The notes: generated from the letters alone by a model not told the origin. Shown: positions 3,541 through 46,841, numbered from the whole stretch's first letter. The stretch is 53,092 nucleotides of DNA, filler included, from Sluysia triapertura (GCA_046118255.1; 4 parts of 4 records of this genome joined end to end with filler, not necessarily neighbours in it), one strand, 5' to 3'. A program made the numbers and translations.

Positions 3541-3844
3541 TGTTATGACGAATAATATGTTAGACCTTTGTCTAATGTGTGTGTTCCTAGAACCCTTTTT
3601 TAATTTGGGTTCTTCACACCAATTTTCGAATGGTTTCGGTTTGGGTAATGCTGTAAAACGTACAAATCAGGCTCAATGTAATAGAATTGTACATTGATGT
3701 TGATGTTTGATAGGAATGAAGTTAACCCGAAACTTCAATCTAATACATACTAAACTTGACGTTTATTTACAATATAAAATCATATTATCTTTTATGAATA
3801 GAATTAAGGTAAAACAATAATAAACGAGATTATTAATTATAACA
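3541..3844. repeat. Candidate solo LTR (~304 bp)
   Basis: Bounded by inverted TGTTAT (3541) ... ATAACA (3839-3844), with AATAAA ~25 bp before the right end. No target-site duplication or second copy seen. Confidence 0.3.
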
Positions 3845-4039
3845 CATATTTGCAGAATATGCAATATAATAATAAAATATAAATGTTATTTGAAATAAAA
3901 GACGTGTCAATGAATAATTTCACATTATTCTGTGCTTCTTAACTCTATATGGTTTTCAAGTTTATATGTCTTTAAAATTAACATTATTTTTTTTACTGGT
4001 TATAAATAATTGAATTGATGACAGTGGTCTCAAAACATC

Positions 4040-4386
4040 ATTACGAATTTCAATAAGCATACCAAGGTTTCCTTTTAAAACTATATCTTCTATTTGTAGA
4101 TAATTACAAATTAGCATGCATTCTATTAAATGTATTAATAGTAATGAGAGTATTAGAATATTAGTGTGATTTATTTGCAGACATTACTAAATAATTTTTG
4201 GAACAGCTTTTTAACATCTAAACTAGTAGCAAACAAAAATAGCTTAACTATTGAACGAAATAGAGGTACTTCATTTTTGCTTATATTATCAAAATAAATA
4301 TTATATTCAAGATGGTTTACGCAGCACCTCATTACTTGTATGCTTACATTACCAATGTGAATATTGCACTTAACCATGTTAATCAA
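4040..4386 (-). mobile_element. Maverick/Polinton major capsid protein (double jelly-roll) internal fragment, decayed
   Basis: ORF 4171..4386 (CNIHIGNVSIQVMRCCVNH...ISKNEVPLFRSIVKLFLFATSLDVKKLFQKLFSNVCK) matches the recalled MCP pattern (I.xa.L.vrkv.v...YP..R..vk.f.i....nlF.g..P). Continues degenerately as NTFNRMHANL..RRYSFKRKPWYAY. Confidence 0.5.
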
Positions 4387-4404
4387 GTTTTTAAAATACT
4401 AAAA

Positions 4405-5290
4405 TAAACCGTAAATTTGACAGAGCAGAGGAAGATCTCTGCGATTTCCAATTTGAATATAAAAGAATAGCAGAAGCAAATGGCTGGAATGAAGCCGAAA
4501 AAATAAAACGGAATGGCTATCCAGACTTATAAGAAATAAGCAATAATAATAAGCAAACTTGGAATGAATTTGTTAATGAATTTACAGAAGAAATAGCTCT
4601 TGATGACCTGGGTAAATATTATACTAAAATGTTAAATACTAGAATACAAAAACCAAATGAATCTGTATAGGAATATGCTTGTGCTCTTAAAAGCCTTGTT
4701 GCTAGAGCTAAAATCCCTGAAAACAAAAAAGAAATAACATTAATAGATAAACTAAAAACTGGATTGCGACCAGAATTAATAACATATGTTACCTTAATAG
4801 AATGAAAACCCTTTAAAGAAGTAATGAAGAAACTAAGAAGTATAGAACGCTCAATTAAGAAGAATAAGAATGATATTGATTATATAAGTGATAATGAAGA
4901 AAAAGGAGATAACTGCCCAAAATTAACAAGAAATACGAATAATTATGATAATAATAAATTTAATTATGAAGAATATAATGACAGTAATTACAATTACGAA
5001 GGATATAATAGCCCACGTAGAGGCAATGATAATTCGAATAATTTCAGACATAATTTTAGAGGAAATTCAAATAATTATAGAAGTAACTCAAATAATTATA
5101 GAAGCAGTTCAAGCAATTGCAGGTGTAATTCAAATAAGTATTATAGAGGAAATAATAATAGAGTAATAATAATAGAAATAATAGAACAAGTTACTATGAT
5201 GCTTCTAATTATGAACAAAGACTAGCACCGAGATGGCCACCAAGTTCCAACTTTAATAGGAATAGAAGTAAAAGTCCAAATAAAAATTCG
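4405..5290 (+). mobile_element. gag: Ty3/Gypsy gag remnant (capsid plus N/R/S-rich C-terminal region)
   Basis: KFDRAEEDLCDFQFEYKRIAEANGWNEAEKIKR; YRIQKPNESV*EYACALKSLVARA (major-homology-like QxxxEsVxxY); KLKTGLRPEL; then ORF 4824..5225 with NNYRGN-type repeats. Paralogous to the gag at 11041-11990. Confidence 0.8.
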
Positions 5291-5394
5291 AAATTCAATA
5301 ATTAATCCAATAAAATAAAAATTATGTTTCAACAAAATATATAAAATCAATAAATGTTTTATATGAGTTATATGAACAAATAAACAGTGTTGTT

Positions 5395-5645
5395 GTCAGT
5401 GTAATTGTGTTTACAAAATTAATCTTAACTGGAGGTATGAATTAGTATACTCGTCCTCGCTGTTCAGGATAAAGTGCTTAATAATTTGTTAATGAGAGTT
5501 ATACGGTTATGCTTTAATCAACATTCAACTGTAATTGAATTTTATTCGTGTCAATTTAATCACTTAGATAAATTATTATTAATTCGATTATAATTATTTA
5601 GTTCAGAATTTACTACTGCAACTTATTACTCTATCTTCAATTTGG
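5395..5645 (-). repeat. Dispersed repeat family B copy (partial, inverted)
   Basis: Reverse complement contains GCAGTAGTAAATT...CGAATAAAATT...GGACGAGTATACTAATTCATACCTCCAG, colinear with 26800-27020. The last motif also occurs at 52552-52579. Confidence 0.65.
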
Positions 5646-6059
5646 CACTTGTATATAAATTAACTTTTAGGGCAACACTCTAAATTTGGTTAAGACAAAA
5701 ATAAAAACTAAATTATTTATTTATAAATTAACACAAATTAAATTATTACAAAATGAATGTAAGAACGTAAAATTTTATAAAATGTGCAATTTTGATTTTA
5801 ATATAAACGTTTAAAAACGAAGGACAATTAATATCACTTACTCACAATAATTTCAATGTATTTGCTTAATAACTGGAATTACTTGGCTAAATTGGCAACT
5901 TGAATCTTCTGTTATTTGTAAAATTTTTTGGTATGTAATCCCTTTATACTGAGATTTTCAATAATAATTACAAAATTATAAAATTAATTTGAATAGGTTA
6001 TTTCCAATTAATCAGTTCTATGTTCAATTTGAATACATAGTATTAGATTAAGTCAATAA

Positions 6060-6148
6060 CAATTTTAATATATAGTATTAAACCAATAAATGTACAATTT
6101 TAATATATAGTATGCAATTAAATGTGTAATTTTAATGTATAGTATTAA
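6060..6148. repeat. Minisatellite, 3 diverged copies of ~33 bp
   Basis: The core AATTTTAAT(A/G)TATAGTAT occurs three times at a 33-35 bp period. Confidence 0.6.
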
Positions 6149-6589
6149 TTTTCTATCAGTTCTAATAATTTTCCTACATAGTAGTATAGTAACAATAACA
6201 ACAACAATAATAATAATTTATAATTGATGTTATTTAAATATATTATTAAATTTCAAAATAAATTATTATAAACATTATAGAAAAACAACAAATGATAATT
6301 TAAGTTAGTGTAATATTAAATTTTACAAAACAATGTTTTAAATAATTATTAATTAGTAAAAATTAACATGAAAAAAATATTATTTTAATACAACGATATT
6401 TAAAATAAAAATTCGTCAACTTAACATAACATTATGATTACATATATTCGAAAAACCTTAATAAACAATGAATAACTTTATTTGAACTTTATCATTTACA
6501 TATTTGCTAATGTTTCGAAAATTCAACAGTGTCATTACTGAATGTGATATATCAAGTTAAATATTGTTTACCAATAAAATGGTCCTTGG

Positions 6590-6878
6590 TGTAACAATCA
6601 CTTAACAAATAATAACAATAATAATAAGAATAACAATACCAATAATAATACATTGCCTTCTACGGTTTATGAAATACTATATCAATTTTAATTTAATTTT
6701 TTATTACTTTAAAATTATTTTATTATATTAACTGTTAAATCTTATTTGAAAATGATTTGAAAAGATTTTAATAAACAAATTTATTTGAAATGGAATTTAA
6801 AATCTTTTATTAAATATTAAGTTAAATTATATATTAAATATTATGTTATTAAATATTATGATCAAATAATATGTTACA
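6590..6878 (-). repeat. Candidate 3' LTR (289 bp) preceded by polypurine tract
   Basis: Minus strand reads ...ATAGGAGGAAAC|TGTAACA at 6878. An inverted copy of the 7-bp terminus lies at 6590-6596. The right boundary is better supported than the left because there is no second LTR to compare. Confidence 0.5.
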
Positions 6879-7182
6879 GTTTCCTCCTATGGCAGGTAAG
6901 CTTTGTCCCAAAGCTAAAAGGAAATCAATGACTATTAGATGAAGGATTTGCATATCTTACAGGATGTATGGAGTATATGTTCAAGGATTTATAAAAATTC
7001 TTTAATTGTGTCGACGTTGTGACGGAGTCAGTGCAGGAGACAAATCAGGTGGGACGGTAAAGGCATACTAGAATAGTATTGAGGGAATTGGTGTGGTGTA
7101 ATGGATGGAGTAGATGTATGATGAAACTCGAAAAAATTACGGAAGTATCCTTTAAAATATGAAGTATAGCGGCGTATTTCGG

Positions 7183-7323
7183 TCAGGCGAAAGCACATGT
7201 TGGAAACTTTGTGGTATTGGCACTAAATAGGCTTATGGCGCATTTATAATCGTATTTATGATTGCATGGAGTACTTTCAACATAATATTCATTTAAGGTA
7301 TTTTTACAAATTGGACAGGTCAT
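7183..7323 (-). CDS. Small RING-finger ORF (46 aa, partly degenerate) inside the Gypsy element; below the ORF-track cutoff
   Basis: MTCPICKNTLNEYYVESTPCNHKYDYKCAISLFSANTTKFPTCAFA*: C-x2-C-x13-C-x-H-x2-D-x2-C-x11-F-P-x-C, with ligands 5 and 7 substituted (each one base from H and C). A polypyrimidine tract plus AG (7350-7349) lies 25 nt upstream of the ATG. Confidence 0.7.
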   Translation of the reverse strand: MTCPICKNTLNEYYVESTPCNHKYDYKCAISLFSANTTKFPTCAFA

Positions 7324-7497
7324 TTATTACATATTGAGAGTGGAACCACTAAAAAAGAAAAGAAAATACTTTTTATTAACCTATGTACGAATCCTACTTA
7401 TTCGGCAATCGTCGATCATGTGCCAACTACCCAGCAAGGCTGAGATCAGTGGACTCCATATATCGAGATTGAAACCTATAAAAGCTACAATAAAATA

Positions 7498-7887
7498 TCA
7501 TACAGACAAAATAAAAATAAAAATGCGTGCATACAGATGCTTTGTTAATTTATCCTTATATCTCCGCAGCAACCGCTCACTTACTATATGAGTGCTAAAC
7601 CCGTAAACGGATGTACAACTACGTATGGTATCTAATCCGATAATACATGATGTAGGACAATTACTGCTTACTCTAAAGGTGACTAACATTCTTCGGTTTA
7701 AAATATCGACTTCATTTGTAATTAATCCAACTACAGGTACGTCACGATCCATGCAATCAACTAACTGACCAGCAGTTGGTTGAATAAATGGTAATTCACA
7801 TATCTGTAAAGATGCAAAATGACGTATTGTATATGGAGCAACGGTATCGAGAAGTGCACGTACCAGTATTCCATTAATTTTTATATT
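7498..7887 (-). pseudogene. Retropepsin-like aspartic protease located downstream of integrase
   Basis: Frame open 7887-7498: NIKINGILVRALLDTVAPYT...GQLVDCMDRDVPVVGLI...VTFRVSSNCPTSCIIGLDTI. DT(G>V) at 7848-7840, flap region and C-terminal IIGxD motif present. Confidence 0.75.
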
Positions 7888-7996
7888 CTACCACACATAA
7901 AGTTTGTCGATTATAGGGTTTCCGAGTGTTAATAGTGGTATTGGATTAGATATGGTTAGATTTTTCTTTTGTCTTACAGACTTTTTTGGGTTTCGA

Positions 7997-8890
7997 TCAG
8001 CGAAAAATTGAAATAATAATAGAGATTACAGTCCAGCTGAATTCTATTATTATTGTTGCAATTAGAATTTTTATTAAGTTAGAAAGAGTATAAATTGTCT
8101 CATCCTTTAAGTAAGCCGTTGCTGAGATTGAATCCTTGTTTGTTGAATTCGATGTACGATTACAGTAGTAAAATGTTGACATATTTTTAGATTTTTGGAT
8201 TTTAGAAAAACTGAAATTATTTTCTTTGTTGTTATCTTCTAAAAGTGTTTCATTATCATCAGATGGGTCTCTTGTTATTTCGTATAAAATATCATAATCA
8301 CCTTCTTCATAGGGATGATTGAAATTTTCATAAGTTTTGTAAGTCGAAAGTCCAAATCTAAAACGACGGTGTTCCATAAAGATTGGTATCGGAACAGGTA
8401 CTTTACAGATAGTATCTGAAGATAATTGTTTGCAAATAGCCGGTTGATTTATTCGTGCTATTTTTATTCTCGAATTTGGACATTTAACAAGAACTAAAAT
8501 GGTATAATTATTAAAGATAATTTTATAGATTCCGATGTAGTTGAGATTTGTAGGTAATTTGTAATTCTTTTAACAGTTTCATCAGCTTGTGGATATTCGT
8601 TTATTTTTAAGGTAAAGATAAAGTTTTGAACAGTTAGTTGTTGTTTTTTATAAGTTGGATTTAAGTTGGTTATAGATATATTATACTTTCGATTAGGTTG
8701 TAACTGTTTAAAATTAACCAGTATTTTTGAATAAGGTATATTATTTGTTGTATACCTATAACATTCTCTTGAAATACTTATTCTTAGTGACATATTTGAT
8801 GGAAGGTCTGCATGTATTGTTATTCCATGTGTTTGTAAGGAAAATGATAAATCCGATATCCAGTGTTTGTAAATGCCACTTTCTCAAGTT
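7997..8890 (-). pseudogene. Predicted single-pass membrane glycoprotein with FN3-like segment (accessory ORF, interrupted by a stop)
   Basis: ORFs 8494..8793 and 7997..8377 plus linker. VNFKQLQPNRKYNISITNLN resembles the FN3 LxPxxxYxxxV motif. Several NxS/T sequons and a C-terminal hydrophobic helix (LIKILIATIIIEFSWTVISIIISIF) followed by basic residues. Confidence 0.45.
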
Positions 8891-9340
8891 ACCATAAGTG
8901 AGTGACTGCTTGCTTGCATATGGTGGGGGTGTCATGTTATTCATTGATTCTTCATACGGCGGTGGACTTTGTCTTTGTAAATTGTAGAATTTCCAAATCT
9001 TTCGTACGATTAACAAAAGAATTAATGTAAGTGTCATTAAAAAAAGAAATGGGATTATTAACATTAAGGTAAATAATGATTCGTGTAATGCGACTGAGGT
9101 AATGGTTGTATTTAAATCTTCATTTTGGTACTGTAATATCCATGTATGGGATTCTTACCACAGTACAATAACAAGTTCTAGCCTTATAATCTGAACATTT
9201 TATTGAAAAGTGTAACTTATTTTCATTTAAATGAATTATATTCGTAATAATTGTACAATGGTGTTAGTCGCAAGAGGGTTTGCAATAAAGTAATAAATTA
9301 GAAGTGTTATTTTTAAGATATACTGAAAGTGTATAATTAT
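8756..9340 (-). pseudogene. Small type I membrane protein with tandem PPxY motifs (accessory ORF)
   Basis: ORF 8756..9064 has a TM segment (MLIIPFLFLMTLTLILLLIV), basic stop-transfer RKIWK, then SPPPYEES and TPPPYAS. Upstream frameshifted pieces give a signal-like YILKITLLIYYFIANPLAT and a Cys-containing KCSDYKARTCYCTVV. Confidence 0.55.
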
Positions 9341-9457
9341 TTCTTTCGAATTCTACAGGAAATTCCTTATGATTTTCTCTTTTACATGTTTATTGATCCG
9401 TTTACATTAAAGTAACTTGTTTTTCTTGATTGAATTAGACAAATTTTATCTTTTGTC

Positions 9458-10669
9458 TTAAAACGAAGATTGTACAACGATTCTTTCACTGCCATTTGCG
9501 TGAACAATTTTTGTTTTCTTTGAACTTTTATTCATGACTTCTAAGTTAGTGGGAGTTACGTTAATAACTTCATATGGCCCTCTAAATGGTATGTTTAATT
9601 TGGGCGTTTGTCCTTTTGAAATTACTGAATCATAAATTAAGACTTTATCACCAACTCTAAATTTATGAGGTTTAGCCTTTTTATCATAATATTCCTTCAT
9701 ACTTTCTTGGTTGTGTTTAATATTTAAACCAGCTCTATTCCAAGCATCATATAATCTGGCTTTAACAATTGACATGTAATCTGGTGTATCCATATATTGT
9801 GATTGGGATCCTGACCAGTCCAAATCAATTGGCATATTGGTATGTCTGCCATACATTAGATAAAAAGGTGTTTCTTTTGTTGTTGTGTGAATAGTATTTC
9901 TATAAGCAAATAGATATGGTTTAATATATAAATCCCAATGTGTTTGTTTTGAATTTACGTTAGATTGCAACGTAAGATTTATTAATGTTTTATTAAATCT
10001 TTCTACTAGACCATCCGTTTGTGGATGATATGGTGAAGTATATATTCTAATAATTCCAAAGAAATTTGTAACAGCCGCTAGTGTTTCACTTACAAAATTT
10101 TTACCTCGATCGGTTAATAGTTTTTTAGGTGTTCCGTATCGATATATTATTTCTTCTATAAACAATTGCGCTACTGTTTCTGCTTTCTGATCTTGCATGG
10201 GAAAAGCTTACGGCCATCTAGATGTGACTGGTAATGGTCCATCGCTGTAATTTCCATAGGACTTGTTGGTAGTGACATTGGTTGTAATGGTGTTTTTGTT
10301 TTTGATCCTGCATTTTTTCTTGACATACATATCTGACATGTATTGTACCATTCTTTGACATCTTTACATAAAGTTTTCCAATAATATTTTTGTTGAACTC
10401 TTTTTTAATGTTTTACCAGCAGATAAATGCCCTCCTAATTGTCCATCATGGTATTGTATCATTAAAGAAACTTTTCTTGTTTCTGGTACTACGATTCGTA
10501 ATTCATCCTTAGTTACGTATTTTAATAATCTGTTTTCCAATTTCCATTTAGCAGCTAATTCGTTTGTTATTTCATTATCGATAATAAGATCGATTATAAG
10601 TTTTAATTCAGGGTCCTCTCTTTGGGCTTGTGCCATTGATTTTTCGTTTTTACTAGAATCTATCATCAT
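9458..10669 (-). mobile_element. pol: Gypsy integrase (HHCC, DDE core, GPY/F), frameshifted
   Basis: ORF 10364..10669 has YHDGQLGGHLS and is followed by YNTCQIC (~10345-10325). ORF 9458..10198 has YGTPKKLLTDRGKNF, TSPYHPQTDGLVERFNKTL, FRVGDKVLI and FRGPYEV. Confidence 0.95.
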
Positions 10670-10689
10670 TGCACATATTTCTCCTTTTC

Positions 10690-10910
10690 ATTAACGTTTT
10701 CTAATCTTGACATAAAATCTGCATTGTTATTATAAACTCATTTTCTATAAGTTATTTCGATACCATATTCGGCCAATGTTAAACTCCATCTAGCTAATCT
10801 TCCTGTTACATTTCGAATATCTCTCAAATACATTAATGGTTTATAAGCGCTGTTATTAATGTTTGAAAAGCATTTTCTTGAGTCTCTGTCCATATAAAAT
10901 TTTTTATTAG
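10690..10910 (-). mobile_element. pol: Gypsy RT connection / RNase H remnant
   Basis: FIWTETQENAFQTLITAL joined by a deletion to YKPLMYLRDIRNVTGRLARWSLTLAEYGIEITYRK*VYNNNADFMSRL. Confidence 0.9.
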
Positions 10911-11040
10911 TTTGCCTTTTTCTTTTACATCCTTACATTCCTTTTTTGTTCAAATCAAAAATCATTTCGTCTTGGTGAATTATTCGATCTTGTCCAAATT
11001 TTATAGGTGAAAATCTAGGAGATCCTCCTCTAAATCGTGT

Positions 11041-11990
11041 TTAATATATATTACGTGCAGTTGAATTATAAAATTGTCCACTTTTTTCATAAGGTATGTA
11101 ATGGTTTTGTTTATTTTCTGAAAATTTATTTGCATAATTGAATTTATAAGAATAATCATTATTACTTTGAGGTGACTTCGGTCTATCTATTTGTTCTTGA
11201 GTAGTATTTTTCATTATTTTTTTCAATTTTTAATCACTATAATTTACTCTTTTAACATTTGAAGATCTTGATCTCTCCTTTGTAACTTTATTCGATTCAT
11301 TTATTAAATTTATATTACGTTCCTTATCATTAATTTGTTTCTCTAATTCTCTAGCTTTTTCTAATGTTGCTTTATATCCTTCAGTATTAGAAGCTCTCAA
11401 TAAAGTTCCTATATTCTTTTAAAGTCCTTTAATAAATCTTTCTGTTAATTTTTTATCAAACTTTTTTCTTTCCTATTCATCATTCATATTGGACGGGTAA
11501 GCCCTTTCAGCTCAAATTCTTAATTGATAAGCATATTCTGCGTCTGTTTCTTCGCGTTGTTGTGTTCTTTCCCTAAACAAATGTTTATTTAAATTTCTTA
11601 TATTATCTCCTACTATATCTTTTATAAAAGCTACTTTTAATTTTTCCCAATCATGTTTCTCTGAATCTGGATTAAATTTAAATACATTGGAAGCATGTCC
11701 AGTAAAAGAGGAAAATTTCAAGCATTTTTCTTTTTCAGTCCATCCAATTGATTCAGCCTCTTCATTATATTCTGATGTGAAATCTAATAATTTATTTTCA
11801 TCTCCAGAAAATTTTTCTACTTTTAGACTTTGGTTAAGTAGAGGGCGATTCATCGCCGTTATAAATTCTGCCATTTGTGCTTTAGTAATAAAATTTTCTT
11901 CAATTATATCATTATTAATAATATTTTCTGCTGTCTTTTTCGTCTGTATCTATAAGACATTTACTACCTCTTCTAGTTGTCAGGTTTATC
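11041..11990 (-). mobile_element. gag: Gypsy gag, decayed
   Basis: ORF 11512..11874 (VEKFSGDENKLLDFTSEYNEEAESIGWTEKEKC...RTQQREETDAEYAYQLR), then RFIKGL and ATLEKARELE, then the low-complexity tail ORF 11041..11226. Confidence 0.85.
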
Positions 11991-12129
11991 TAAAATCTCA
12001 ATAAAATATAACAAAAAATATAAAAGGATTACACAATATATAAAACTTTAATTTAAATAAATTTATTTATTTATCAAGTCTTATAACACACAATAATTAA
12101 AGTGGCACACAATAATAAGTGACAAACAA

Positions 12130-13243
12130 GTAAAAAATGTACCAAATAATGCGACTAAAGCTTGGAAAACAGTGGAAAACACAATATTTTCAGAAGTGGT
12201 CGATTTAGATGACCCTGATTTTTATGAATTGCTAAATAAAATAGAAAATGATGACACAATCAAAGATAATGATCCAAAGGAAAATGAAAGTGAAGTAAAA
12301 AAACAATAATTTAAAAGAAAATAATGATAATGAGATACAAAAGTTAATAAATGAAGTTGGAAACGCTGTAAAACAGAATTATGAACAAAATAAATTAACA
12401 AATACATACAAACTAGAAGAACAGATAGACAAAAGTTTTACAACACAAATTAAAAAGACAAAAGTGCAAAAATTAAAGAATAAACCAAAAGATTTACCAT
12501 TTGCCCAAGAAGCAATGAGAAAAAATAAAACAAAAAATAAAAATAATGTGGGAAATCAAAGATATAAGGAACAATTAAAAGAAGTTGGAGCATCTCTTGA
12601 AAGAATATCATTAAAACCAACTGATAGAGTAAGAATGTTATGCATTATGAAATGCATAAATCCTAGGAAATACTATCAATTTAAAGTGAAGCCTAATGAA
12701 ATAGAAACCCAGTTAGCTGAACTAATTAAAGAAAAGATGTCACAGGTTAGAGCAGGATCTTTAGGATTCATACAACATAATACAATATTGTAATACGAAG
12801 GTGGAGTGATAATTCGACGAACTATAATAGATGGCATCACAAATAACAAGATTACAAGTATAATGGTGCATTTGGCTGTACAAATTTATGACAAAACTAC
12901 ATTCTCGTACGAAGAAAAAGCATGTAAGAAAGCAGTTGAATTATTAACAAAGTATTTATTAAGTTGGATCACTCAAAAAGGAGTATGAAAGGAAGTGATA
13001 GAAGAAATAAAAAATAATAGTCCAAGAATAAACCCACGTCAGGCAGAACTGAACCAGGTAAGTATTAGTCAAAATTTTCAAAGATTACTGACAATAATTT
13101 TAATTTTATGTGGAATAAAACTACCTGGTACAATAGTGGCATATGATTACAGTCATCCGGAGATCGGAAGTAACTTCTCATTAATCGATATAGAAAACTG
13201 TCCAGAAGCAACACCAACTAGACTATTTAATTTAGGAAATTAA
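12130..13243 (+). pseudogene. Long leader plus N-terminus of chuvirus-G / gB-like envelope glycoprotein; truncated by contig end
   Basis: ORFs 12464, 12806 and 12995 are in the same frame, separated by single stops. They end in an internal signal sequence LLTIILILCGIKLPGTIV followed by AYDYSHPEIGSNFSLIDIENC (cf. conserved AYDC...SLxDxxxC; TAC is one base from TGC). Confidence 0.65.
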
Positions 13244-13253
13244 GTACACCATA

Positions 13254-13353
13254 NNNNNNNNNNNNNNNNNNNNNNNNNNNNNNNNNNNNNNNNNNNNTTA
13301 ATTAATTAANNNNNNNNNNNNNNNNNNNNNNNNNNNNNNNNNNNNNNNNNNNN
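13254..13353. other. Artificial contig spacer
   Basis: 44 N + TTAATTAATTAA (stops in all six frames) + 44 N = exactly 100 bp. Confidence 0.98.
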
Positions 13354-14860
13354 GGACTTGAAAAACCTTTAGAAGCATTAAGGTACCTTTGAACTTTAGA
13401 TCATTTAAGACCTTAGTAACCTTTAAGTATTTTGGAACATCGATGAGCATTTGAGATCCTTTAGTAATCTTATAGCGTTTAAAATCTTTAAAATAGTTGA
13501 GAAATAAAATCATTGTTATTGGTATTAGGAATAAATCTAGTATTGTAATAATTAACATGAAGAAGTAGGAAAGGGAATCAGAGAGGTGAAGGTGAAAACA
13601 TTAAGAGCCTCCTGAATGCCTTATAAACTACTAAATAAAACATTTAGACATAAAATAAGATAGATTAAAAATAGATTAATTAATTAAAATCTTAATTAAC
13701 ATAATTAAGAAAAAGTACGTTTTTTGTGAATAACTTTTGAATGCTGAATGCAGTTAAATTTGAAACTGTGTATTTATTTTGAGAAGACCTTTCGATGAAG
13801 GTATGGTTTGACCGAGTTTTAGTTAATTTTTAATTATGGAATGTTGAATTTATTAAACTTAGAATCATGCAAGTACAATGAATTTAATATGAGATTATTG
13901 CTATAGAAGAGAATCTATAAGTAAGTTTGAAATATTTTTTTGAGAATAAGAAGCCTAAAACATTTTCATTAGAAAAATAGGTGTGAAAAACTAGAAATCG
14001 ATTAAATTCTGAAAACTAAAATTAAATTACTTATTTTTTATGCATGTTAACAATCATAATTGTTACATTAATGTGAGAATTAATTTTAGTAAAAGTAGAT
14101 TGAGTAGAGTAAAGGAAAATAATAAATAATCGTAAATGAAATTAAAGTTCTGTATCTATTAAAGTTTGACAGTCTGTACCACGTAAGTATCAAAGGTATT
14201 ATTGTCAGATTAATTCTCAAATAATGTTGCAGTGATATATGTGAAAGAGTGTTTAATCACAAAATTAGAAATTATTGGATAAAATATAAAAAGGAAAACT
14301 TAAAAATTTTATAACACTACGCAGCAACAATTACAATAACAATACAAAAATAATAACAATTAGTAATGCAAATGAAAAGATCCATGCTTAAAGAATATTT
14401 TGAATTTATTTTATCATTAAAAATAATATTATGTTTTGGAGGATTTTATTAAAATAGTTTTTTTGTTCTTGTGTTATGTTGAACAATTTATATTTGATAA
14501 TCGTGAATAATATTTAATATTTTTCTTAGTGTTGCATCACCTGTGATTTCTTTTGATAGATTGTTATATCCTTGAGACTATTATAAACATTATTGTTAAT
14601 CTCGTCATTTTATTCATTTTTAGTACTGCTTAATAGAGATTTATAATAATACTAATTTGTAGTTGATTTTTATTTAACCATTAAATTGTTGTGTTATTGA
14701 TTTGATTTTCCAAGAGCTTAATTTTGTGGTGAATAATTATTGATATTAAATAAGAGAATTATTGAAAATTTATATTTAATCTAGTGAATACTTAAAATAT
14801 TGAGATTCTTTTTACGCTAATTAAATTAATATTTCTTTTTAAATAATTTAATAATTTTCA
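13354..14860 (+). repeat. Dispersed repeat family A copy (unclassified, ~1.5 kb)
   Basis: Colinear with 36990-38540, e.g. TTGAGAAATAAAATC.TTGTTATT, TAATAATTAACAT.AAGAAGTAG, GGTGAAGGTGAAAACAT...GAGCCTCCTGAATG, TTCGATGAAG.TATGGTTTGACC, ATCTAGTGA.TA. Confidence 0.85.
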
Positions 14861-15529: not shown

Positions 15530-16130
15530 AAGGTACCTCTGGACTTGTGAACGTTTAAATCATTTAAGACCTTATTGACTTTTAATTAGACTTGAAGCTC
15601 TCAATAAGCATTTAAGATCCCTTAGAACTTTAAAATATTTGAGAAATAAAATCATTGTTATTGGTATTAAAGTGAAATCTACTATGGTAATAATTAACAT
15701 GAAGACGTAGAAAAGGAATCAGAGATATGAAAGTGAAAACATCAATTAAATTCGAAAAACAAAAATTAAATTCATTATTTTTATGTATGTTAACAGTAAT
15801 AATGATTGTTATTTTAATGTGAGAAGTAATATAAGTAAAAGTAGATTAAATAGAGTAAACGAAAATAGATGATCATAAATCAAATTTTTGTTTTGTACTT
15901 AATAACGTTTGACAAGCTGTACCACGTAATTGTCAAAACTATTATTGTCGGTTTAATTCCCTGAAGTTTGATTATTTGTGTATCTGCTTGATTGTGAAAC
16001 CGAGGATTGATTGGATGATGAAAAAATATAAAAGGAAATACTTACAACCATTAATGCGGGATTATTGTCTTGAAGATAGAGGATTAATGTAGGTAAAATT
16101 TTAATTTACTTTATTTTATTATTTGGTTAT
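15530..16130 (+). repeat. Dispersed repeat family A copy (internally deleted; may extend to ~16700)
   Basis: Shares ATCATTTAAGACCTT, TTGAGAAATAAAATCATTGTTATTGGTATTA, AGTAAAAGTAGATT and CTGTACCACGTAA with 13354-14200. Confidence 0.85.
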
Positions 16131-24587: not shown

Positions 24588-24687
24588 NNNNNNNNNNNNN
24601 NNNNNNNNNNNNNNNNNNNNNNNNNNNNNNNTTAATTAATTAANNNNNNNNNNNNNNNNNNNNNNNNNNNNNNNNNNNNNNNNNNNN
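24588..24687. other. Artificial contig spacer
   Basis: 44 N + TTAATTAATTAA + 44 N. Confidence 0.98.
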
Positions 24688-29006: not shown

Positions 29007-32000
29007 CTGTCAACTGTATGACGTTAAGATATTTTCCAGTATTAAGAACATTGTCGACATGAGATTCCAGAAATTTCGGCACTAGTGACGATATGATGTG
29101 GTACCGCTTTGTCCAATAATCCGGTCCAATAGTACCATCTGGAGAAGTTTGAATTTGGTTTTCATATATAAAAAATTCTTTATAAGCATCTGATATAATA
29201 CCACGATATATCCACAAACGCAGCATTCGAAAAAATGGAACTGTAACCTAAATGCGAAATTATTAAAGCAAGAATTTTATAATTGTAACTAATACAACCA
29301 TTTTAATTCATTGAACACATTGAATGCCATGGGGTCACCAGTGACCGGCGAAGCCAAGATTAAAATAAGTGCCTTTCAGCGACGTGGGAGGCAGCGGTTA
29401 CCTCAGTGAATTAAGTGCGTCACGAATGATTACAATAATTAATTGTTCTATTGTAAATAATATTTCATCAAAATATGCAACACATATTGAGAAATTCATT
29501 TAGGCCTGACGGGCAAGCCATGTAAAATTAGCGTGGCATTCAATTTGTTCAGAAAATATTAGTCTATTATTGATTTAATATGAAACTATTGTAAAATAAA
29601 ACAAATAAAGAGATTTCACAGTTTGTGTATTATAAGAAAACAGATCAAAATTAAGATTTTTTCGGTTTTTAAATTATTTTCTGTGATGTACCATTAAAAA
29701 TGTATAACAAATTATGGAAATCGATCAAAAATAGATTTTCTTAGCAAGTTCATAAAGGATAAACAAATAATTTATAACAATGGCAATACACAGGATTTTG
29801 CAATCCTATATTAACTTAATAAAAAATTTTTTTAGAACCTATATGGCAAGAAAGGTTCGAAAGGTTATTAGAAAAGACTTATGATACATTATTTCAATGC
29901 TTAAAATAAAATGTCAAACAATTTAAGAGATATCTTCATCTTTCCATGATTTTACAATTAAGAGAAACTAATCAATTAATTTTTAATACTGTAATCTGTA
30001 ATAGTGTCATAATTCAACAGGAAATGTTTCAAGCTTCAAGAGATACAGTATACCACAATTTCAAGGTCTAGAGTTTCATGATAAATATTACAAGGAAAAG
30101 GCTCTATTTCGTGCCAGAAGAACGAAATACTATCGAGAAAATTAATGTTCCTAAATTGAATAAATTTTAGTTATGTTAATATATGAATGCACACCTGCTA
30201 ATATACGATTGCAAAACTCTGTAATAATGGTAATAATATATTAAATTATATTTCTCTTATATATACTGCCAAAGAAGTTCTCAAAAGCACTTATAATAAA
30301 TCATTCATAATTTTTCTGAAAAGAAAGATCATTACTTTTTTCTTAAATATTTCATAATCTTCTAGAAATCTAACGCTCCCTGGTAGATGGTTACATATTT
30401 TTGAAACAAACATTGCATTTCATTTTCAATTCTGTACAAATTATTATATCTTAATGTCATCAATTTTGGTTTCCGGATTTTTCATTATTAGGATTTCCAT
30501 AATGTAAGCATTTCCCTCTCGCTTTTTTTGATAACCAATATAATTCTTTAAGATAAGATGTTATAAAAAATTAAGCTTGCCGGTTAATTCAATAGTAATT
30601 AATGCAGATAAATTAACAAATGGTCATAGAAAAATATAAATATAAACAATTTAATAGTAATTCTGAAGTTTAGGAATTATTTTTCAATTTATAAATAATT
30701 TGGTTTTATAATTTCGTAAATAAAGAAAACATAATGAAAATAAAGAGGTGATACAATAATAATTTTAATTAATTTTATACTATTTTCAAATTTAAAATTA
30801 ATTAAATGAATAGATAAATAAGCTTACATATTCCATAAGATATGTGTAAATGTTTTTATCAATAGGTGAACCACTTGATGCCAAACGTTTACAAAGATGC
30901 GTTAGAATTGTACCACCATGTAATTTATTTTCTCCAACTACTGTACAAACATCTGCTAAAACTCGTAATGCAGGCTCTGGACCTTGACACAGTTGACTTA
31001 ACAATTGAGATGGTGTTAAAGCATCTGGAGGTGGTAGTAGTGCCTCCGCTTGAGAACGACATACTTCGAGACGAAATTGTCGTAACTGACCACTCATTGC
31101 TGCTGCTAATGCTTGCTTAATACAGCCGCTTTCACAACCACAATAATCTTTAATATTTATATACAAAATAAACTATTAAATATAAAATTACCATCAATAA
31201 ATTTAGCTATTGTAGAAACATTTCTGCAAATTTTTAAAACGTGTTCCACTATACATTTATTACCAACACCTAAATTTCGAATTTAATTCTTTAAAATTAA
31301 TTACTAATTGAGTCATGAATGGAGAATTCTAAACCATTAATTGGATCATATCGTGGTCGTATGTAGATGCCATGGTTATTCTGAATATTTCTAATTTATT
31401 TTTTAAACAATTTACAAACCATTAAACAATAAATCAAATCTTTAGTGACAAGTACATCTTCTTCATAACTGCTAACGTCACTAAGATTTAAAACAGGATT
31501 TGAAAACTAAAAGTGAATATTTAAGAAACGAAATTACTTGATTTAACAACGAAGATTCTAAATAATTCAAACACGTAAATTTATTATTCTGCATAAAACC
31601 GGTATTTCCAGTATTTGATAAAGATGATTGTGACTTTAAAAAATCTGACTTTTTCAAAGGTAAACTCTTATTGCCACCTCTGGTATATAAATTTTCTTTT
31701 TGCTGTTATATTAAAATATAATTGGAAATATTACTTCTATTTTTTCAGCTTTTAACATTTCCATTACTTCAGGTTTCGATTTAATAACATAAAGAAACCT
31801 TATGTACCTCGAAAGCTCTTTCACACTTAATTGATTTATAATTTTTTTGCTATAATTTACTTTCGAACATCAAGCTGTTCATATAAGTTCTGAAAACGCT
31901 GACTATGTGGATTATTCTGTATAAGTGTAGGTATAATATGATTAACTCTATGCTACAAAAAATAATATTTAATATTTTACTTACTCCTGCAGAATCAAAT

Positions 32001-34490: not shown

Positions 34491-35350
34491 CTAATAAGTT
34501 ATTTCTGATATTCGACGGGATGTTTGCATTTTGAACAATTTTTTCTCAAATTGTGGATTTCTAAAATAAGAAAGATCAAATTCAATTAGTGGCCGAATAG
34601 AAAATATAAAAATTACTTTAAGTTGCACGTCATCCGTACAGCTAATAAGTTGATTAATTTCAAGGACATCATTATGATTCATGTTATCTATCAATTTGTT
34701 TTTTTACTAACATCTTGTGTAGCCATTATTAGATTGTTTACACGTTGTACATGATCATAAATAACGTTTGATTTAGTATCAATATAACTAATTTCATTGA
34801 TATTATGATAAAAGATGCAAGATGGTCCGAATTTACTGCATTGACTTAATTCATTCGATTGGAATGGACATTGTGCTGTTCTAAATAGTTTATAATTTTG
34901 TTGGTTTGAAACAATGTTGATTAGAGGTGAAACAATTGAAGTAGCAAGATTGTTTGAGACATTAAGTTCTGTTGAGTAATCTGCTGTGATTTTACTATGA
35001 CAAGCGTCGACATTATGTGTATCACGATCTGATAGAATTGTACTAACATTAGTACTTTTATCTTTCATAGAGTCATATATATATACATACGAACTTCGTT
35101 GAGGAATATATGGTGAATAAGGTGTAACATAAAATTTAACCACTAAGTCGGAATCTATTTCAAAATTATTAATTTCTTTTTATATTATGTATAACACAAC
35201 CATAGCATTACCATAATTTATGAGCAATTTTATATTGCTATTCATTTCTTGTGTAACGTCATTTAAGGACTGTACAAATCTCCAAATGTTTGAAAAAGAA
35301 AACACTTGATAAAAATTTTGTATACAAACTTGACAAAAATACGATGCCAT
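34491..35350 (-). CDS. CCCH zinc-finger protein (Unkempt-like finger spacing), spliced; 3' end uncertain
   Basis: ATG at 35350, exon 35350-35212, 57-bp GT-AG intron, then an exon from 35154 in frame with ORF 34691..35143. Contains KLFRTAQCPFQSNELSQCSKFGPSCIFYH (C-x9-C-x6-C-x3-H). ORF 34491..34694 may supply further exon(s). Confidence 0.55.
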
Positions 35351-36929: not shown

Positions 36930-38540
36930 AGCTGAAGAATACCTTTGAGTTCAAAATACCTATATAAGGGTTTAGGACCTTACGAAAGCTTGAAATGGAC
37001 TTGGAAAACCTTTCGGTGCTTTTGAAATTGTAAACTTTTAGATCATTTTCGATCTTATTAATCTTTAAGAATTCTTGAAACCTTGATAAACACCTAAAAT
37101 TTTCGAGTAATCTTATAAAGTTTTTAAAATCTATAAAGTATTTGAGAAATAAAATCTTTGTTATTAATGTTAAATTTAGTATGGTAATAATTAACATAAA
37201 GAAGTAGAAAAATGAATCACTTGGGTGAAGGTGAAAACATATAGAGCCTCCTGAATGTCTTATAAACTAATAAATAACTTTAGAACATTAATAAAATCTT
37301 TAAACATAAAATAGGATTAAGTCAAAAAATTAAGTCTAACTTTTGAATGTGGAATGCTGTGTTAAATTTGAAACTGTGTGTGGATTCGTTTTAAAAATAT
37401 TTTTCGATGAAGTTATGGTTTGACCCAGTTCATGCAATGAAATCCTTAATATTGAACAAAGTCAAATTTTAATTAATTATTAATTATGAAATGTTGAATT
37501 TTTCGTATTTAACATGATGAAAATATAATATAAGATAATTTCTATGAAAAAGGAGAATCTAGAAATGAGTTTGAAATGTCTATAAAGTGGTTCGTTTAAG
37601 AATAAGATCCTTAAACATTTTCCATAAAAAATCGAAAATCAATTAAATTCTAAAAAGTGAAATTAAATTCATTATTTTTAAATATGTTAACATTATTGTT
37701 GATTGTTATTTTAATTTAAGAAGTAATTTAAGTAAAAGTAGATTATTTAGGAAAATAATTCATGATCATAAATTAATTTTTTGTGTTTGGTACCTAATAA
37801 AGTTTGGCAGACCGCACAATCAGATAGTAAACAATTATTACTAAAATCCATGACTATGGTAAGGCTTTTAATTTTTTTATTATTTTAATTATTATTAAAA
37901 ATAACTTTTTGAAGTAATTTCCAGTTAACTTTTGCTATTATTAGTATAATTTTTTAGATATTAATGAATTGATTTTTAGGAGGATCCCTGCCTAAATTAT
38001 TTTGCAATTAAGTTAAAATATTTGAAAATATTTAAGTTTTAATATTATTTTGACTTTCTTAATTTAGTTAAGCTAATTTTTGCGAGGATCCCTGCCCAGA
38101 TTGTTTAATGATATTGACTGCATTTAAGTTAAAATAAAATATCTTAAAATTTTCAAGTATTATTATTATTCTGATTTTTTTAGATATTAATAATTTTATT
38201 TTTATTACATCATATCTGGTTTCTTTCAATGGATTATTGTGGTTTTAATATTGCCATAAATATTAATGTGTTTTGAAATTTAGTCATTTTTTTTTAAATT
38301 CACTTGTATTATTGTTAAATCAGAAACTTATAATAGCTGCTTGCATTTGATTTTGTAATTATTATATTATTGAGTTATTTTTACTAATTTGAATTGAAAA
38401 TAGTAATCTTTGGGTTGAATAAATATCATTATTAAAATAAGAAAATGTGTTATTAGTTATACTTGATCTAGTGAGTATTGAATTATTAAGTAAATTAAAC
38501 TGATATTGACTTATTGTTACGAATAATTTCGAACACAAAA
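36930..38540 (+). repeat. Dispersed repeat family A, longest copy
   Basis: Colinear with 13354-14860. Contains the duplicated subunit GAGGATCCCTGCC (~37980 and ~38084). Confidence 0.85.
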
Positions 38541-39099: not shown

Positions 39100-39954
39100 C
39101 TTTCGTAACAATAACTTTAAAGAAAAACGTAACATTAATTTCTAAGGATAAAACACTTGGTATTTTGATAAATTAAATTGCTTAGGGATATTCTTCTCAA
39201 GTATCTTAAAAATATCTAAAAATTAAATATTATCTTTAACAAAAATTACTTGGGGCGTTTCCAAAAAATTTTACCAGTAACAAAAAAAATCAAACATTTA
39301 AAAATTTACCAAAATTGCATAGGGTGTTTCCCACAGAACTATTTTAATAATAATTAATAGCTTATATTAAATTAAAATATAATCTATTACTTATCTTATT
39401 TTAATATAATAAAATAAAGTAAAAAATTAATGAAAACTTTACCTTATGCATGGATCTTCATACCATTGTGCCATTTTACCATGGTTTCATCGTTGTTATT
39501 GTGTTGTAAAAATTTAGAAATCTTTATTTTATACTCTTTCATCATCCAATCAATTCATAATCTCACAACCAAACATTCTCTCACACAAATCATCCAAACC
39601 TCTTTGAGAATCAAACCTACAATAACAACTTTGACAACTACGGTTTGTCAAACTTTATTACGTACAAAACATAGAAATCTCAGTCTGTTTTTACTTAAAT
39701 TACTTTTCACATTAAAATAACAATCAGCAATACTGTTGACATACATAAAAATAATGAATTTAATTTCACTTTTAATTAATTAAATTTAATTAATTTTCTA
39801 TTTTACACACCCAATTTTCTAATGAAAAATGTTAAAGATTCTTATTCTCAAATGAACCATTTTACAACCATTCTCCTTTTCATAGCAATCATCTCATATT
39901 CCATTCATCATATTTGCATCACTCTAAGTATTAAAAATTTAACATTTCATAATT
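39100..39954 (-). repeat. Dispersed repeat family A, inverted copy truncated by contig end
   Basis: Reverse complement matches 13830-14220 and 15750-16110 (AATTATGAAATGTT.AATT, ATTAAATTCATTATTTTTATGTATGT, AAAGTTTGACA, GATTGGATGATG). Left boundary approximate. Confidence 0.75.
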
Positions 39955-40054
39955 NNNNNNNNNNNNNNNNNNNNNNNNNNNNNNNNNNNNNNNNNNNNTT
40001 AATTAATTAANNNNNNNNNNNNNNNNNNNNNNNNNNNNNNNNNNNNNNNNNNNN
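39955..40054. other. Artificial contig spacer
   Basis: 44 N + TTAATTAATTAA + 44 N. Confidence 0.98.
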
Positions 40055-43911: not shown

Positions 43912-44538
43912 TCAGAAGTCCTTTTTGAATCTGTTGGGAAATACCATATTACGAATGACACCTAGTGCATAATACATATTATAACGCTTCCTAGACATAA
44001 AATTTGTTACAAAATCTTGAGATGAATCATCTTTCAAATTGTTGAGAAAAGGAACATATACATTTGAATTAGAACATCCAACTGATAAACTAATCAAAAA
44101 CATAAATGGACACATTAATACACACACTGCCAAATACGCACATATATTATCGAAGTTCAACATTGTATCGCTCATGTCATCGTAATAAAAATAATACAAA
44201 CTAGCAACAATGTGTAACACAAACATTGCAACACTTGATATAAACTTTACACTTCTTATTTTTATATAAGGAAAACCAATTAAAAGAAAAAAATATGACA
44301 AATGCGACATAATTCCAAACATAATAATTAAAGGAGAAATAGTATCACTTTCAAATATGAATAACGCTACATTTATCACTATTTGAAATACCAGTACACA
44401 GATTATTGTATACGCAAACAATTGAGAATATTCTTCAATAAATTCTGTAAAATAATATAATGATATAAATATGCTAAACAAAAAAACTAAAAATACGAAG
44501 ATATACCAGAATAGAGAGAGCACATACAAAATAGTCAT
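43912..44538 (-). CDS. TEX261: TEX261 / Svp26 family ER-Golgi cargo adaptor, intronless, 208 aa
   Basis: Full-length colinear match to family motifs: LYYFTEFIEEYS (LYYLAELIEEYT), LLIGFPYIKIRSVKFISS (LLQTFPFIMLTSPNFILS), AYLAVCVLMCPFMFLISLS (AYFTFCLWIIPFAFFVSLS), DFVTNFM (DVVSNYF). Confidence 0.93.
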   Translation of the reverse strand: MTILYVLSLFWYIFVFLVFLFSIFISLYYFTEFIEEYSQLFAYTIICVLVFQIVINVALFIFESDTISPLIIMFGIMSHLSYFFLLIGFPYIKIRSVKFISSVAMFVLHIVASLYYFYYDDMSDTMLNFDNICAYLAVCVLMCPFMFLISLSVGCSNSNVYVPFLNNLKDDSSQDFVTNFMSRKRYNMYYALGVIRNMVFPNRFKKDF

Positions 44539-44825
44539 AATAAATTAATATAGATTTTATTTTGTAAGAAAAATAAAAAAAACTAAATAGTAATTAAATA
44601 GTAATAAAAAAGCGATTGAATTAAATTAATTTTAAAAACGCTCATTATAATTAATTTTAAAAAATATTAATTTTAATAAATTATTATATTAACTTAATTA
44701 TTAAAACAAAAATCGCAAAAGATAAAATAAGAAATTTTCAGATTATTTAATATTTTATTTATATTAACATTTTGGAAAATAACAATAATGTATTAATTTA
44801 TATTGCGCTCATATCCATTGCAAAA

Positions 44826-45785: not shown

Positions 45786-46046
45786 TTATAAAGGACACAA
45801 TAAAAGAAAAAAAAATAAATATAAATGATCTTCTTGGATTTGATCAACACTGTTTCCAACAAAATGAATAATGTTATTTACTAAATCTCTGATTGTACCA
45901 AGGTAATCATAGTTATAAATATCTTCATCTAAAAATAAAAGATTAATAGTTAAATCACATCTTTCGGCATTTATTTTCAAATTTTTTGTAAGTTCAACTT
46001 GAACACTGAGGTTATCAGTTACAACATCGAATCGTAGAGCTGTCAT
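45786..46046 (-). mobile_element. Possible Maverick minor capsid (penton) N-terminal fragment
   Basis: DNLSVQVELTKNLKINAERCDLTINLLFLDEDIYN resembles the recalled N..s.F.v.L...l.L.g.weVaL..l.....i.N pattern. Weak. Confidence 0.3.
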
Positions 46047-46841
46047 TTCAAGACTTTCTTCGGGTTATTATACTAAAGTCCATATCTTGTTTGCTGTTAA
46101 TTTCCGTTCAATGTTTTAACGTAAAAGCGTATTAAAATAAAGCACAATAGTGGAATTAGTGCAGACTGGTATTTGAAAAAATAATTATAAACAATATTAA
46201 TAATGGTACTAGTTTCGTTGTGTGCTAATCGTGGTTGTCAAAAACTAAAAGCGATGGTAATTTATGAAAAATACTAGGAGCTTGATTTTTAATATTTAGC
46301 ATTATTTCACTTTTATATGTACTACTTTATAATATTAACATTATTTGATTTCAAAAAAATATTTAATTTTAGAATTGATTTATTTAAAAATTGGCGCTTT
46401 ACTTTAATTAAACATTTTTTCTATACAAAAGAGTTTAGTAAATATTTGGATTTTTTGGATCTCCAAATTTCTCACACCTAGAATCAGATTTATTTGTACG
46501 AATTATTGGATAGGTTACAGTAATCAAAGTTTAATTATAATGGCCATCACGATTTAAACTATACTTTGAGATTTGTTAAGGCACATTTTAATATAGTTGA
46601 TGAAATTAAATGCGATAAATTCAAAAAAGTGGCTGTGCTTCCTACAATAAGTTTTAATGATTTATTTAATGATGATAAAGGTAATATCAATTACCCTGAA
46701 TTTTACCGGTCTCATTACCTTTGTTGCTAAAGTAAAATCAGAATTAGATTCTGAAATTGAGACATTATCATGGAAGGTGATTCGTTCGTTCGTTCGTTTC
46801 TTGATGGATTATCAAAGTTTGAAAAAACCGACGATTACTCC

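Follow-up and report, generated by a model that had tools for sequence, protein, structure and literature searches.

What does a retroelement keep behind its integrase (IN), and does it keep it as separate genes or as a continuation of its polyprotein? This question is raised by a decayed Ty3/gypsy (Metaviridae) element on the minus strand of a 53,092-nucleotide stretch of DNA from Sluysia triapertura (GCA_046118255.1; four parts of four records joined end to end with filler and not necessarily neighbors in the genome), which we refer to as the window. Positions 6590 to 9457, between the integrase and a putative 3' long terminal repeat (LTR), had initially been annotated as a set of four accessory genes of a complex-retrovirus-like lineage, encoding a membrane protein with PPxY motifs, a membrane protein resembling fibronectin type III (FN3) domains, a protease (PR) and a RING finger. 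Here, we find that these modules very probably belong to the element and that, judged by its relatives, they likely formed for the most part one in-frame tail of the polyprotein. The explanation that we favor in full, i.e., the tail of a giant gag-env-pol polyprotein that is cut into PPxY, FN3, protease and RING parts, is rather probable.

The window copy has the following layout, in which TM denotes a transmembrane segment, ORF an open reading frame and RT reverse transcriptase, and in which P0123 is a relative described below.

6590 to 6878, minus strand: putative 3' LTR of 289 bp with TG...CA termini and 7-bp inverted ends (sequence)
6879 to 6890, minus strand: polypurine-tract-like stretch (sequence; purine run at 6888 to 6880)
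7186 to 7323, minus strand: RING finger with Cys or His at six of eight ligand positions (Pfam zf-RING_2 and zf-C3HC4; frame)
7420 to 7524, minus strand: hydrophobic stretch between protease and RING, with a stop inside (hydropathy 2.3; frame map)
7618 to 7887, minus strand: extra retropepsin behind the integrase (clade protease profile, tblastn)
7997 to 8500, minus strand: likely second FN3-like repeat (8500 to 8393), stalk and TM2 (8068 to 8003) (profile rank, sequons, hydropathy 2.4)
8494 to 8883, minus strand: likely first FN3-like repeat (weak Pfam fn3, profile rank, low-confidence beta-sandwich model)
8756 to 9154, minus strand: ORF of a single-pass membrane protein with two PPxY motifs (hydropathy, motif scan)
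9270 to 9319, minus strand: signal-peptide-like stretch (hydropathy 1.75; relatives have a signal-like stretch at the same distance behind IN)
9433 to 9474, minus strand: linker motif that the clade shows behind IN, in the frame neighboring that of the stop at 9458
9458 to 10690, minus strand: frame-shifted integrase with zinc finger, core and GPY (Pfam Integrase_H2C2 and rve; 50 to 59% identity to eight relatives)
10696 to 10930, minus strand: pol scraps, RT connection and end of RNase H (Pfam, frame map, tblastn)
11000 to 11949, minus strand: gag with stops (Retrotrans_gag E 0.019; tblastn with the gag of P0123, E 4e-7)
12097 to 13243, plus strand: pre-env spacer remnant and start of a gB-type env (Monjiviricetes_fusion E 0.007; tblastn with P0123 residues 1149 to 1319, E 1.7e-6)

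What the window holds is a decayed Ty3/gypsy copy: RNase H precedes the integrase, and the integrase consists of H2C2, core and GPY/F parts. The initial annotation considered the copy dead; the integrase is frame-shifted, gag contains stops, and Pfam, frame map and tblastn detect neither the pol protease nor RT, nor most of RNase H. The PR-RT part upstream of RNase H is deleted here and is seen in the relatives P0004, P0007, P0009, P0123 and L001. At the other end, TGTAACA stands at 6878 and its inverted mate ends at 6590; the LTR start and polypurine tract thus stand as annotated as far as ends and purine run go, but sequence comparison within the window detected no second LTR copy, so that these two features are what supports the 3' LTR. 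All cassette modules lie on one strand with no inner LTR among them, and none of 1000 dinucleotide shuffles of 6890 to 9457 yielded four ORFs of at least 125 residues.

The relatives of the integrase provide the framework for reading this cassette. An integrase search among longer proteins gave 514 matches, and the results derive from the best 120 of these 514; eight relatives with 50 to 59% integrase identity were set apart from the other matches listed. An integrase phylogeny of the kind proposed at the outset was built as a quick maximum-likelihood tree with 45 of 116 proteins and, among loci from collections of metagenomes and genomes, 25 of 39. In it, the window integrase falls in a clade of 13 rows (the window and 12 others; SH-aLRT 98) that, after merging two identical pairs, comprises ten distinct relatives of the window. 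Among 168 loci, L001, L081 and L082 alone fall in this clade, and window modules other than integrase and protease had no match in the 168 loci at E 0.05. The collection viral_contigs held no match for the window integrase, while the clade alignment gave ten distant loci. L081, L082 and other loci are eukaryotic retroelement contigs inside prokaryotic genome bins and, therefore, likely contaminants of those records.

In nine of the ten relatives, the frame stays open beyond the integrase and encodes a signal-like or membrane tail, P0005 being without one; seven of these nine tails end in a TM and two run off their contigs. A hydrophobic tail behind the GPY/F motif occurs in 2 of 103 other matches listed. 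One seed repeat recruits repeats in seven of the ten relatives and in neither of these two outsiders with a hydrophobic tail, and a search with the FN3-repeat alignment found just four proteins, each either belonging to the clade or nearly a copy of a member. These repeats resemble FN3 domains: the P0009 pair is modeled as two seven-strand sandwiches (pLDDT 88), for which fibronectin type III domains come up as matches (best E 3.7e-7; 311 matches below 0.001) along with phage FN3 proteins, and Atlas gives fn3 at 0.90. P0123, a single ORF of 3,735 residues on an 11.5-kb metagenome contig, has, in this order, gag, a spacer, a gB-type env (Monjiviricetes_fusion E 1e-91), a TM, two proteases, a spacer with weak matches, RT, RNase H, IN, a signal, two FN3-like repeats, a TM and a Pro-rich tail. 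P0009 carries signal-FN3-TM both ahead of its protease and behind its integrase. In L001 (described region 3630 to 11517), the integrase is followed in frame by a protease with canonical motif, ankyrin repeats above cut-off, FN3-like repeats and a TM, and the polyprotein is followed by two exonuclease-like ORFs, one of which passes Pfam RNase_T (DEDD), parted by short tandem repeats; a ubiquitin-like ORF with a weak ubiquitin match is also present. Thus, a protease behind the integrase is not unique to the window. PPxY occurs behind a TM in two of the ten relatives, i.e., after the env TM in P0123 and after the last TM in P0011. By this sequence comparison, the region behind the integrase is a bay for variable cargo in this clade, and it is supported that the lineage characteristically carries membrane and ubiquitin-related modules.

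The modules of the window copy differ in how clearly they can be named. The PPxY membrane protein is confirmed. The ORF at 9154 to 8756 has a strongly hydrophobic segment (Kyte-Doolittle 3.0; TM1 at 9061 to 9005) directly followed by a basic patch (9004 to 8990) and, on the same strand, by PPxY motifs at 8965 to 8954 and 8929 to 8918. The six frames of the whole window hold three PPxY motifs, two of which are this pair; a close pair arose in none of 1000 dinucleotide shuffles of 6890 to 9457, and two PPxY motifs anywhere in 19 of 1000. The front of the ORF is broken, no N-terminal start of the myristoylation type is seen there, and the signal-like stretch at 9319 to 9270 has no in-frame Met nearby.

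Of the FN3-like membrane protein, the membrane part holds: the ORF at 8569 to 7997 has cysteine in its front, five N-glycosylation sequons, TM2 and basic residues behind TM2. FN3 itself is below cut-off in the window (Pfam fn3, E 0.046) and is the weakest part of the observed cassette. Among 3,528 window chunks, the clade FN3 profile ranks 8709 to 8638 second and 8473 to 8393 third, with E values of about 1 (1.3 to 1.5 for the repeat at 8500 to 8393) and one unrelated chunk above them; this ranking is suggestive by position and not significant. A six-frame search of the unchunked window with the FN3 profile gave no match, and an Atlas search with the 190-residue ORF of the window gave no usable one. 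The single-sequence structure model of the window FN3 ORF is a low-confidence beta-sandwich (pLDDT 48); Foldseek returned nothing below E 0.001 for it, with C2 domains at the top of the list, and the best match in VIA structural comparison had Z 5.7 among mixed beta-sandwiches. The single-sequence fold of this ORF is too poor for naming a family, and we rejected the C2 matches.

The protease and the RING finger, by contrast with FN3, are both borne out. The retropepsin at 7887 to 7618 is below Pfam cut-offs (E 0.02) but has E 5.6e-13 against a profile built from seven protease domains of relatives and is matched in tblastn by P0004 and P0009 (E 1e-4 to 3e-4); its catalytic motif is the noncanonical D-T-V in this copy, while homology to retropepsins is clear. 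It is followed by a hydrophobic stretch and not by RT. The RING finger at 7323 to 7186 exceeds the Pfam cut-offs (28.9 bits versus 27.3 for zf-RING_2; 25.7 versus 21 for zf-C3HC4), and a RING-like pattern occurred in none of the 1000 shuffles of 6890 to 9457. A single frame, interrupted by four stops, holds the protease, the hydrophobic stretch and the RING.

Do these modules belong to the element? The contigs of the one DNA run that holds the stretch were placed on the window at 80% likeness and their depths summed per bin. Summed contig depth, which does not equal copy number and to that extent weakens the argument, was 4,666 to 34,946 across the eight bins of the tail modules (7200 to 9399) and 17,225 to 38,402 over the integrase. 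Deep coverage extended through every bin between 6925 and 13240, with 1,452 at 6925 to 7199 and 12,748 in the RING bin, and depth fell to 102 in the flank at 5825 to 6099; the single contigs listed had depths of 16 to 27. Because depth over the tail is comparable to that over the integrase, the tail is repeated, unlike a single host pseudogene. Moreover, one contig with 99 differences (84% alike) spans 8203 to 8829, and same-direction skip joints are seen at 9155-9560, 8051-10617, 7310-7624 and 6935-7225, with short sides of 21 to 35 letters and drawn from 15 of 167 joints. Altogether, these data support the idea that the modules are neither unrelated insertions nor host pseudogenes, and we consider it highly probable that they are part of the element. 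They also make it very improbable that the cassette is a one-copy patchwork in which recombination or misassembly joined pieces of different elements, such as a P0009-like FN3-TM-PR front, to a captured host RING. Such a patchwork would fit the several Gypsy scraps that lie nearby in both directions, the large deletions in the window copy, the inverted env piece beside a scaffold gap, the FN3-TM unit ahead of the pol protease in P0009 and the lack of a RING in the relatives. However, the depth of the bins, including that of the RING, and the joints and diverged contig that link neighboring modules in other copies argue against it, as do the single strand without inner LTR, the protease followed by a hydrophobic stretch instead of RT, and the protease behind the integrase of L001.

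If the modules are part of the element, are they genes or a tail? The initial annotation took the stop at 9458 as the end of the integrase. A motif chosen after inspecting the relatives, Y-[PNK]-[LF]-R, follows shortly behind the integrase end in eight of the ten; it has three matches in the window, which counts 106,184 codon positions, and one of these matches is at 9474, where 0.002 are expected. This match lies in the frame adjoining the one that stops at 9458, and we read the stop as likely a frame break of the window copy and not the natural end of pol. In the window, short hydrophobic Cys-containing words can be seen by eye on both sides of the integrase and ahead of the extra protease; similar words stand at several domain borders of the relatives. 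The four separate accessory genes of the initial annotation are, therefore, likely to be mostly an in-frame polyprotein tail, given that nine of ten relatives continue through the integrase. That the modules were separate genes all the same, expressed through splicing or re-initiation in the manner of complex retroviruses, appears improbable and would be likeliest for the RING alone: the RING opens with a Met immediately behind two stops and may, on this evidence, be an ORF of its own, the exonuclease and ubiquitin-like ORFs of L001 stand apart behind the polyprotein, and LTR elements of rotifers are described as having separate ORF3 cargo (PMC5408684). In addition to the in-frame relatives and the motif at 9474, the single frame shared by protease, hydrophobic stretch and RING and the signal-like stretch without a nearby in-frame Met speak against separate genes.

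Several observations weigh against the in-frame tail as we reconstruct it. The post-integrase linker profile did not place 9474 among its top eight positions, which only the short motif found. L001 shows that cargo can also occupy separate ORFs. A RING and a tandem PPxY are each found in none of the ten relatives. The PR-TM-RING frame is without relatives among 508 long candidate proteins and without a true relative among 1.84 billion representative proteins; the two matches among the latter were rejected, one being a bacterial FN3-repeat protein (a 36-residue protease stretch with summed repeats) and the other a generic plant RING-H2 repeat protein. The FN3 of the window copy is significant in none of the Pfam, clade-profile, Foldseek and VIA tests. 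From the PPxY tail to the first FN3, little space remains in which a signal peptide could fit, so that the topology here is tentative. Finally, no second full copy was seen and no piece of the DNA run spans the whole stretch; the exact order IN-TM(PPxY)-FN3/TM-PR-RING-PPT was therefore not observed a second time in full.

We suggest the following scenario for the in-frame tail. The live family would have had a single reading frame running from gag through env and pol into the tail, and the resulting polyprotein would thread the membrane of the endoplasmic reticulum several times. Signal peptidase would open each lumenal part, and a retropepsin just behind a membrane anchor would free the cytosolic cargo. 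The joining of a TM to a protease recurs, between env-TM and PR in P0123 and between FN3-TM and PR in P0009, and the basic residues after both TMs of the window copy, together with the sequons before TM2, fit an N-out topology. Textbook virology is the source of the roles proposed for the products. PPxY late domains bind WW domains of NEDD4-family ligases, which leads to ESCRT; by analogy, the PPxY membrane protein might bind such ligases and thereby recruit ESCRT, the FN3-TM protein might work together with the gB-type fusogen in attachment or adhesion, and the RING might be a membrane-near E3 ligase for ubiquitin tagging. We regard a role of the tail products in budding and attachment as tentative. 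Doubtful as a complete picture is a complex-virus-like enveloped member of the Metaviridae that combines a gB fusogen, an FN3 attachment protein, an ESCRT-recruiting PPxY protein and several anchor-parked proteases that free swappable cargo (RING, ankyrin, exonuclease).

The same tail might serve host manipulation instead, by ubiquitin-driven endocytosis that removes or masks host surface and defense proteins, which we regard as possible but rather unlikely. A membrane-near RING and a PPxY membrane protein are the toolkit of viral down-regulators. Cargo varies among the relatives (ankyrin, exonuclease, RING), as under host conflict, and the planarian Burro elements carry much cargo with domains related to ubiquitin and apoptosis (PMC6431247). 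However, the FN3-TM unit is kept in seven of ten relatives and is more core-like, and PPxY is present in the env tail of P0123, too. A conserved FN3-TM surface protein beside a gB-type env, a post-integrase protease and PPxY/RING cargo provide concrete parts for cell exit and entry of Burro-type elements, and the in-frame tail shows how a retroelement may gain genes by extending one polyprotein across the membrane.

The env piece lies head to head with gag and is truncated by the gap that begins at 13254, with the env part proper at 12299 to 13243. It belongs to the same lineage and would be either a second copy or an inversion. We did not adopt an antisense-env design because the relatives carry env in sense and other nearby scraps lie in both directions. 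Elsewhere in the window, 2058 to 2869 on the minus strand is a remnant of the lineage, with an env end including a TM (E 2e-21 to P0123) followed by a protease start (E 0.002), and 4170 to 5225 on the plus strand is a decayed gag-like frame with an Asn/Arg-rich tail seen by eye (depth 30,786 in the bin at 5000 to 5274). A dispersed repeat family occurs in both directions at 13395 to 14216, 15554 to 15959, 37037 to 37764 and 39684 to 39852 (74 to 89% alike). The scaffold gaps at 13254 to 13353, 24588 to 24687 and 39955 to 40054 share an identical 12-base palindrome, which is flanked in each gap by 44 N on either side. Host gene pieces on the minus strand are a gamma-tubulin complex component (30798 to 31172), an Unkempt-like zinc finger (34691 to 35179), an Erv26/TEX261-like protein (43912 to 44544) and a poly(A)/CCA polymerase head (45786 to 46064).

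How does this element compare with known systems? The initial annotation did not recognize its combination from described elements; the modules are part of the lineage, but the kind of element is known. Planarian Burro/GYPSM1 has one ORF of about 5,000 residues in which a mononegavirus-type env stands in frame, flanked by gag and pol, and a dUTPase-like stretch separates PR from RT; its cargo comprises ubiquitin-like, MATH, BCL2, BIR and ankyrin domains (PMC6431247). Such elements fill planarian genomes and were proposed to be proviruses that act on ubiquitin and apoptosis. Giant ORF, gag-env-pol order, dUTPase-like stretch and ubiquitin-like or ankyrin cargo are seen in the relatives P0123 and L001, and the host DNA is likewise A+T-rich (17 to 36% GC per kb in the window). 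This likeness is drawn from layout and the description of env, not from sequence alignment. By contrast, the accessible text of PMC6431247 names no FN3-TM tail, post-integrase protease, PPxY protein or free RING, and Pfam found no MATH, BCL2, BIR, ankyrin or ubiquitin-like cargo in the window frames. The LTR of the window copy is about 289 bp and not kilobase-sized, its length is far below 30 kb (coverage drops by 6099), and its env remnant lies upstream of gag on the opposite strand, unlike the env of Burro and of P0123, which lies in frame between gag and pol. Because of the short LTR, the other cargo and the displaced env, we do not class the window element as Burro itself; on present sequence evidence it is likely of the same lineage, and its host would probably be a flatworm.

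Similar comparisons, each limited to the accessible parts of the papers, place the other candidates. Six GAG-ENV-POL elements with gB-type env are described in Schmidtea (PMC13524379); these errantiviruses (Platyhelminthes_C1a) have the order and env type of the relatives, and their env rows share with P0123, by eye, a pattern of cysteines and motifs. They differ from the window, in which the env remnant is inverted and outside gag-pol, and the text of PMC13524379 mentions fibronectin, accessory, ankyrin and exonuclease zero times. Juno, Vesta and TelKA of bdelloid rotifers resemble the lineage in the variable cargo behind pol, small TM ORFs and DEDD exonucleases, the last as in L001, but have a separate ORF3 and, where present, an F-type env, with no FN3, protease or RING named (PMC5408684). 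The sORF2/FAST-like proteins of the MDG1 group are small single-pass proteins with a basic patch after the TM, at times encoded downstream of pol; however, they are myristoylated products of 63 to 107 residues with a 30-residue ectodomain in env-less elements (PMC11952523), whereas the window membrane ORF has a signal-like stretch upstream, PPxY behind and a lineage with env. Troyka was rejected because of its CG ends, as given in the abstract of PMC12440569. In the literature examined, we found neither an FN3-TM tail nor a post-integrase protease nor a PPxY/RING load described for such elements; Grohme et al. 2018 and Repbase, which lie outside it, may hold part of this. Altogether, the kind of element, a giant planarian GAG-ENV-POL element with ubiquitin-related cargo, is already known; as far as that literature goes, the clade-wide FN3-TM tail, the protease behind the integrase and the PPxY/RING load are new.

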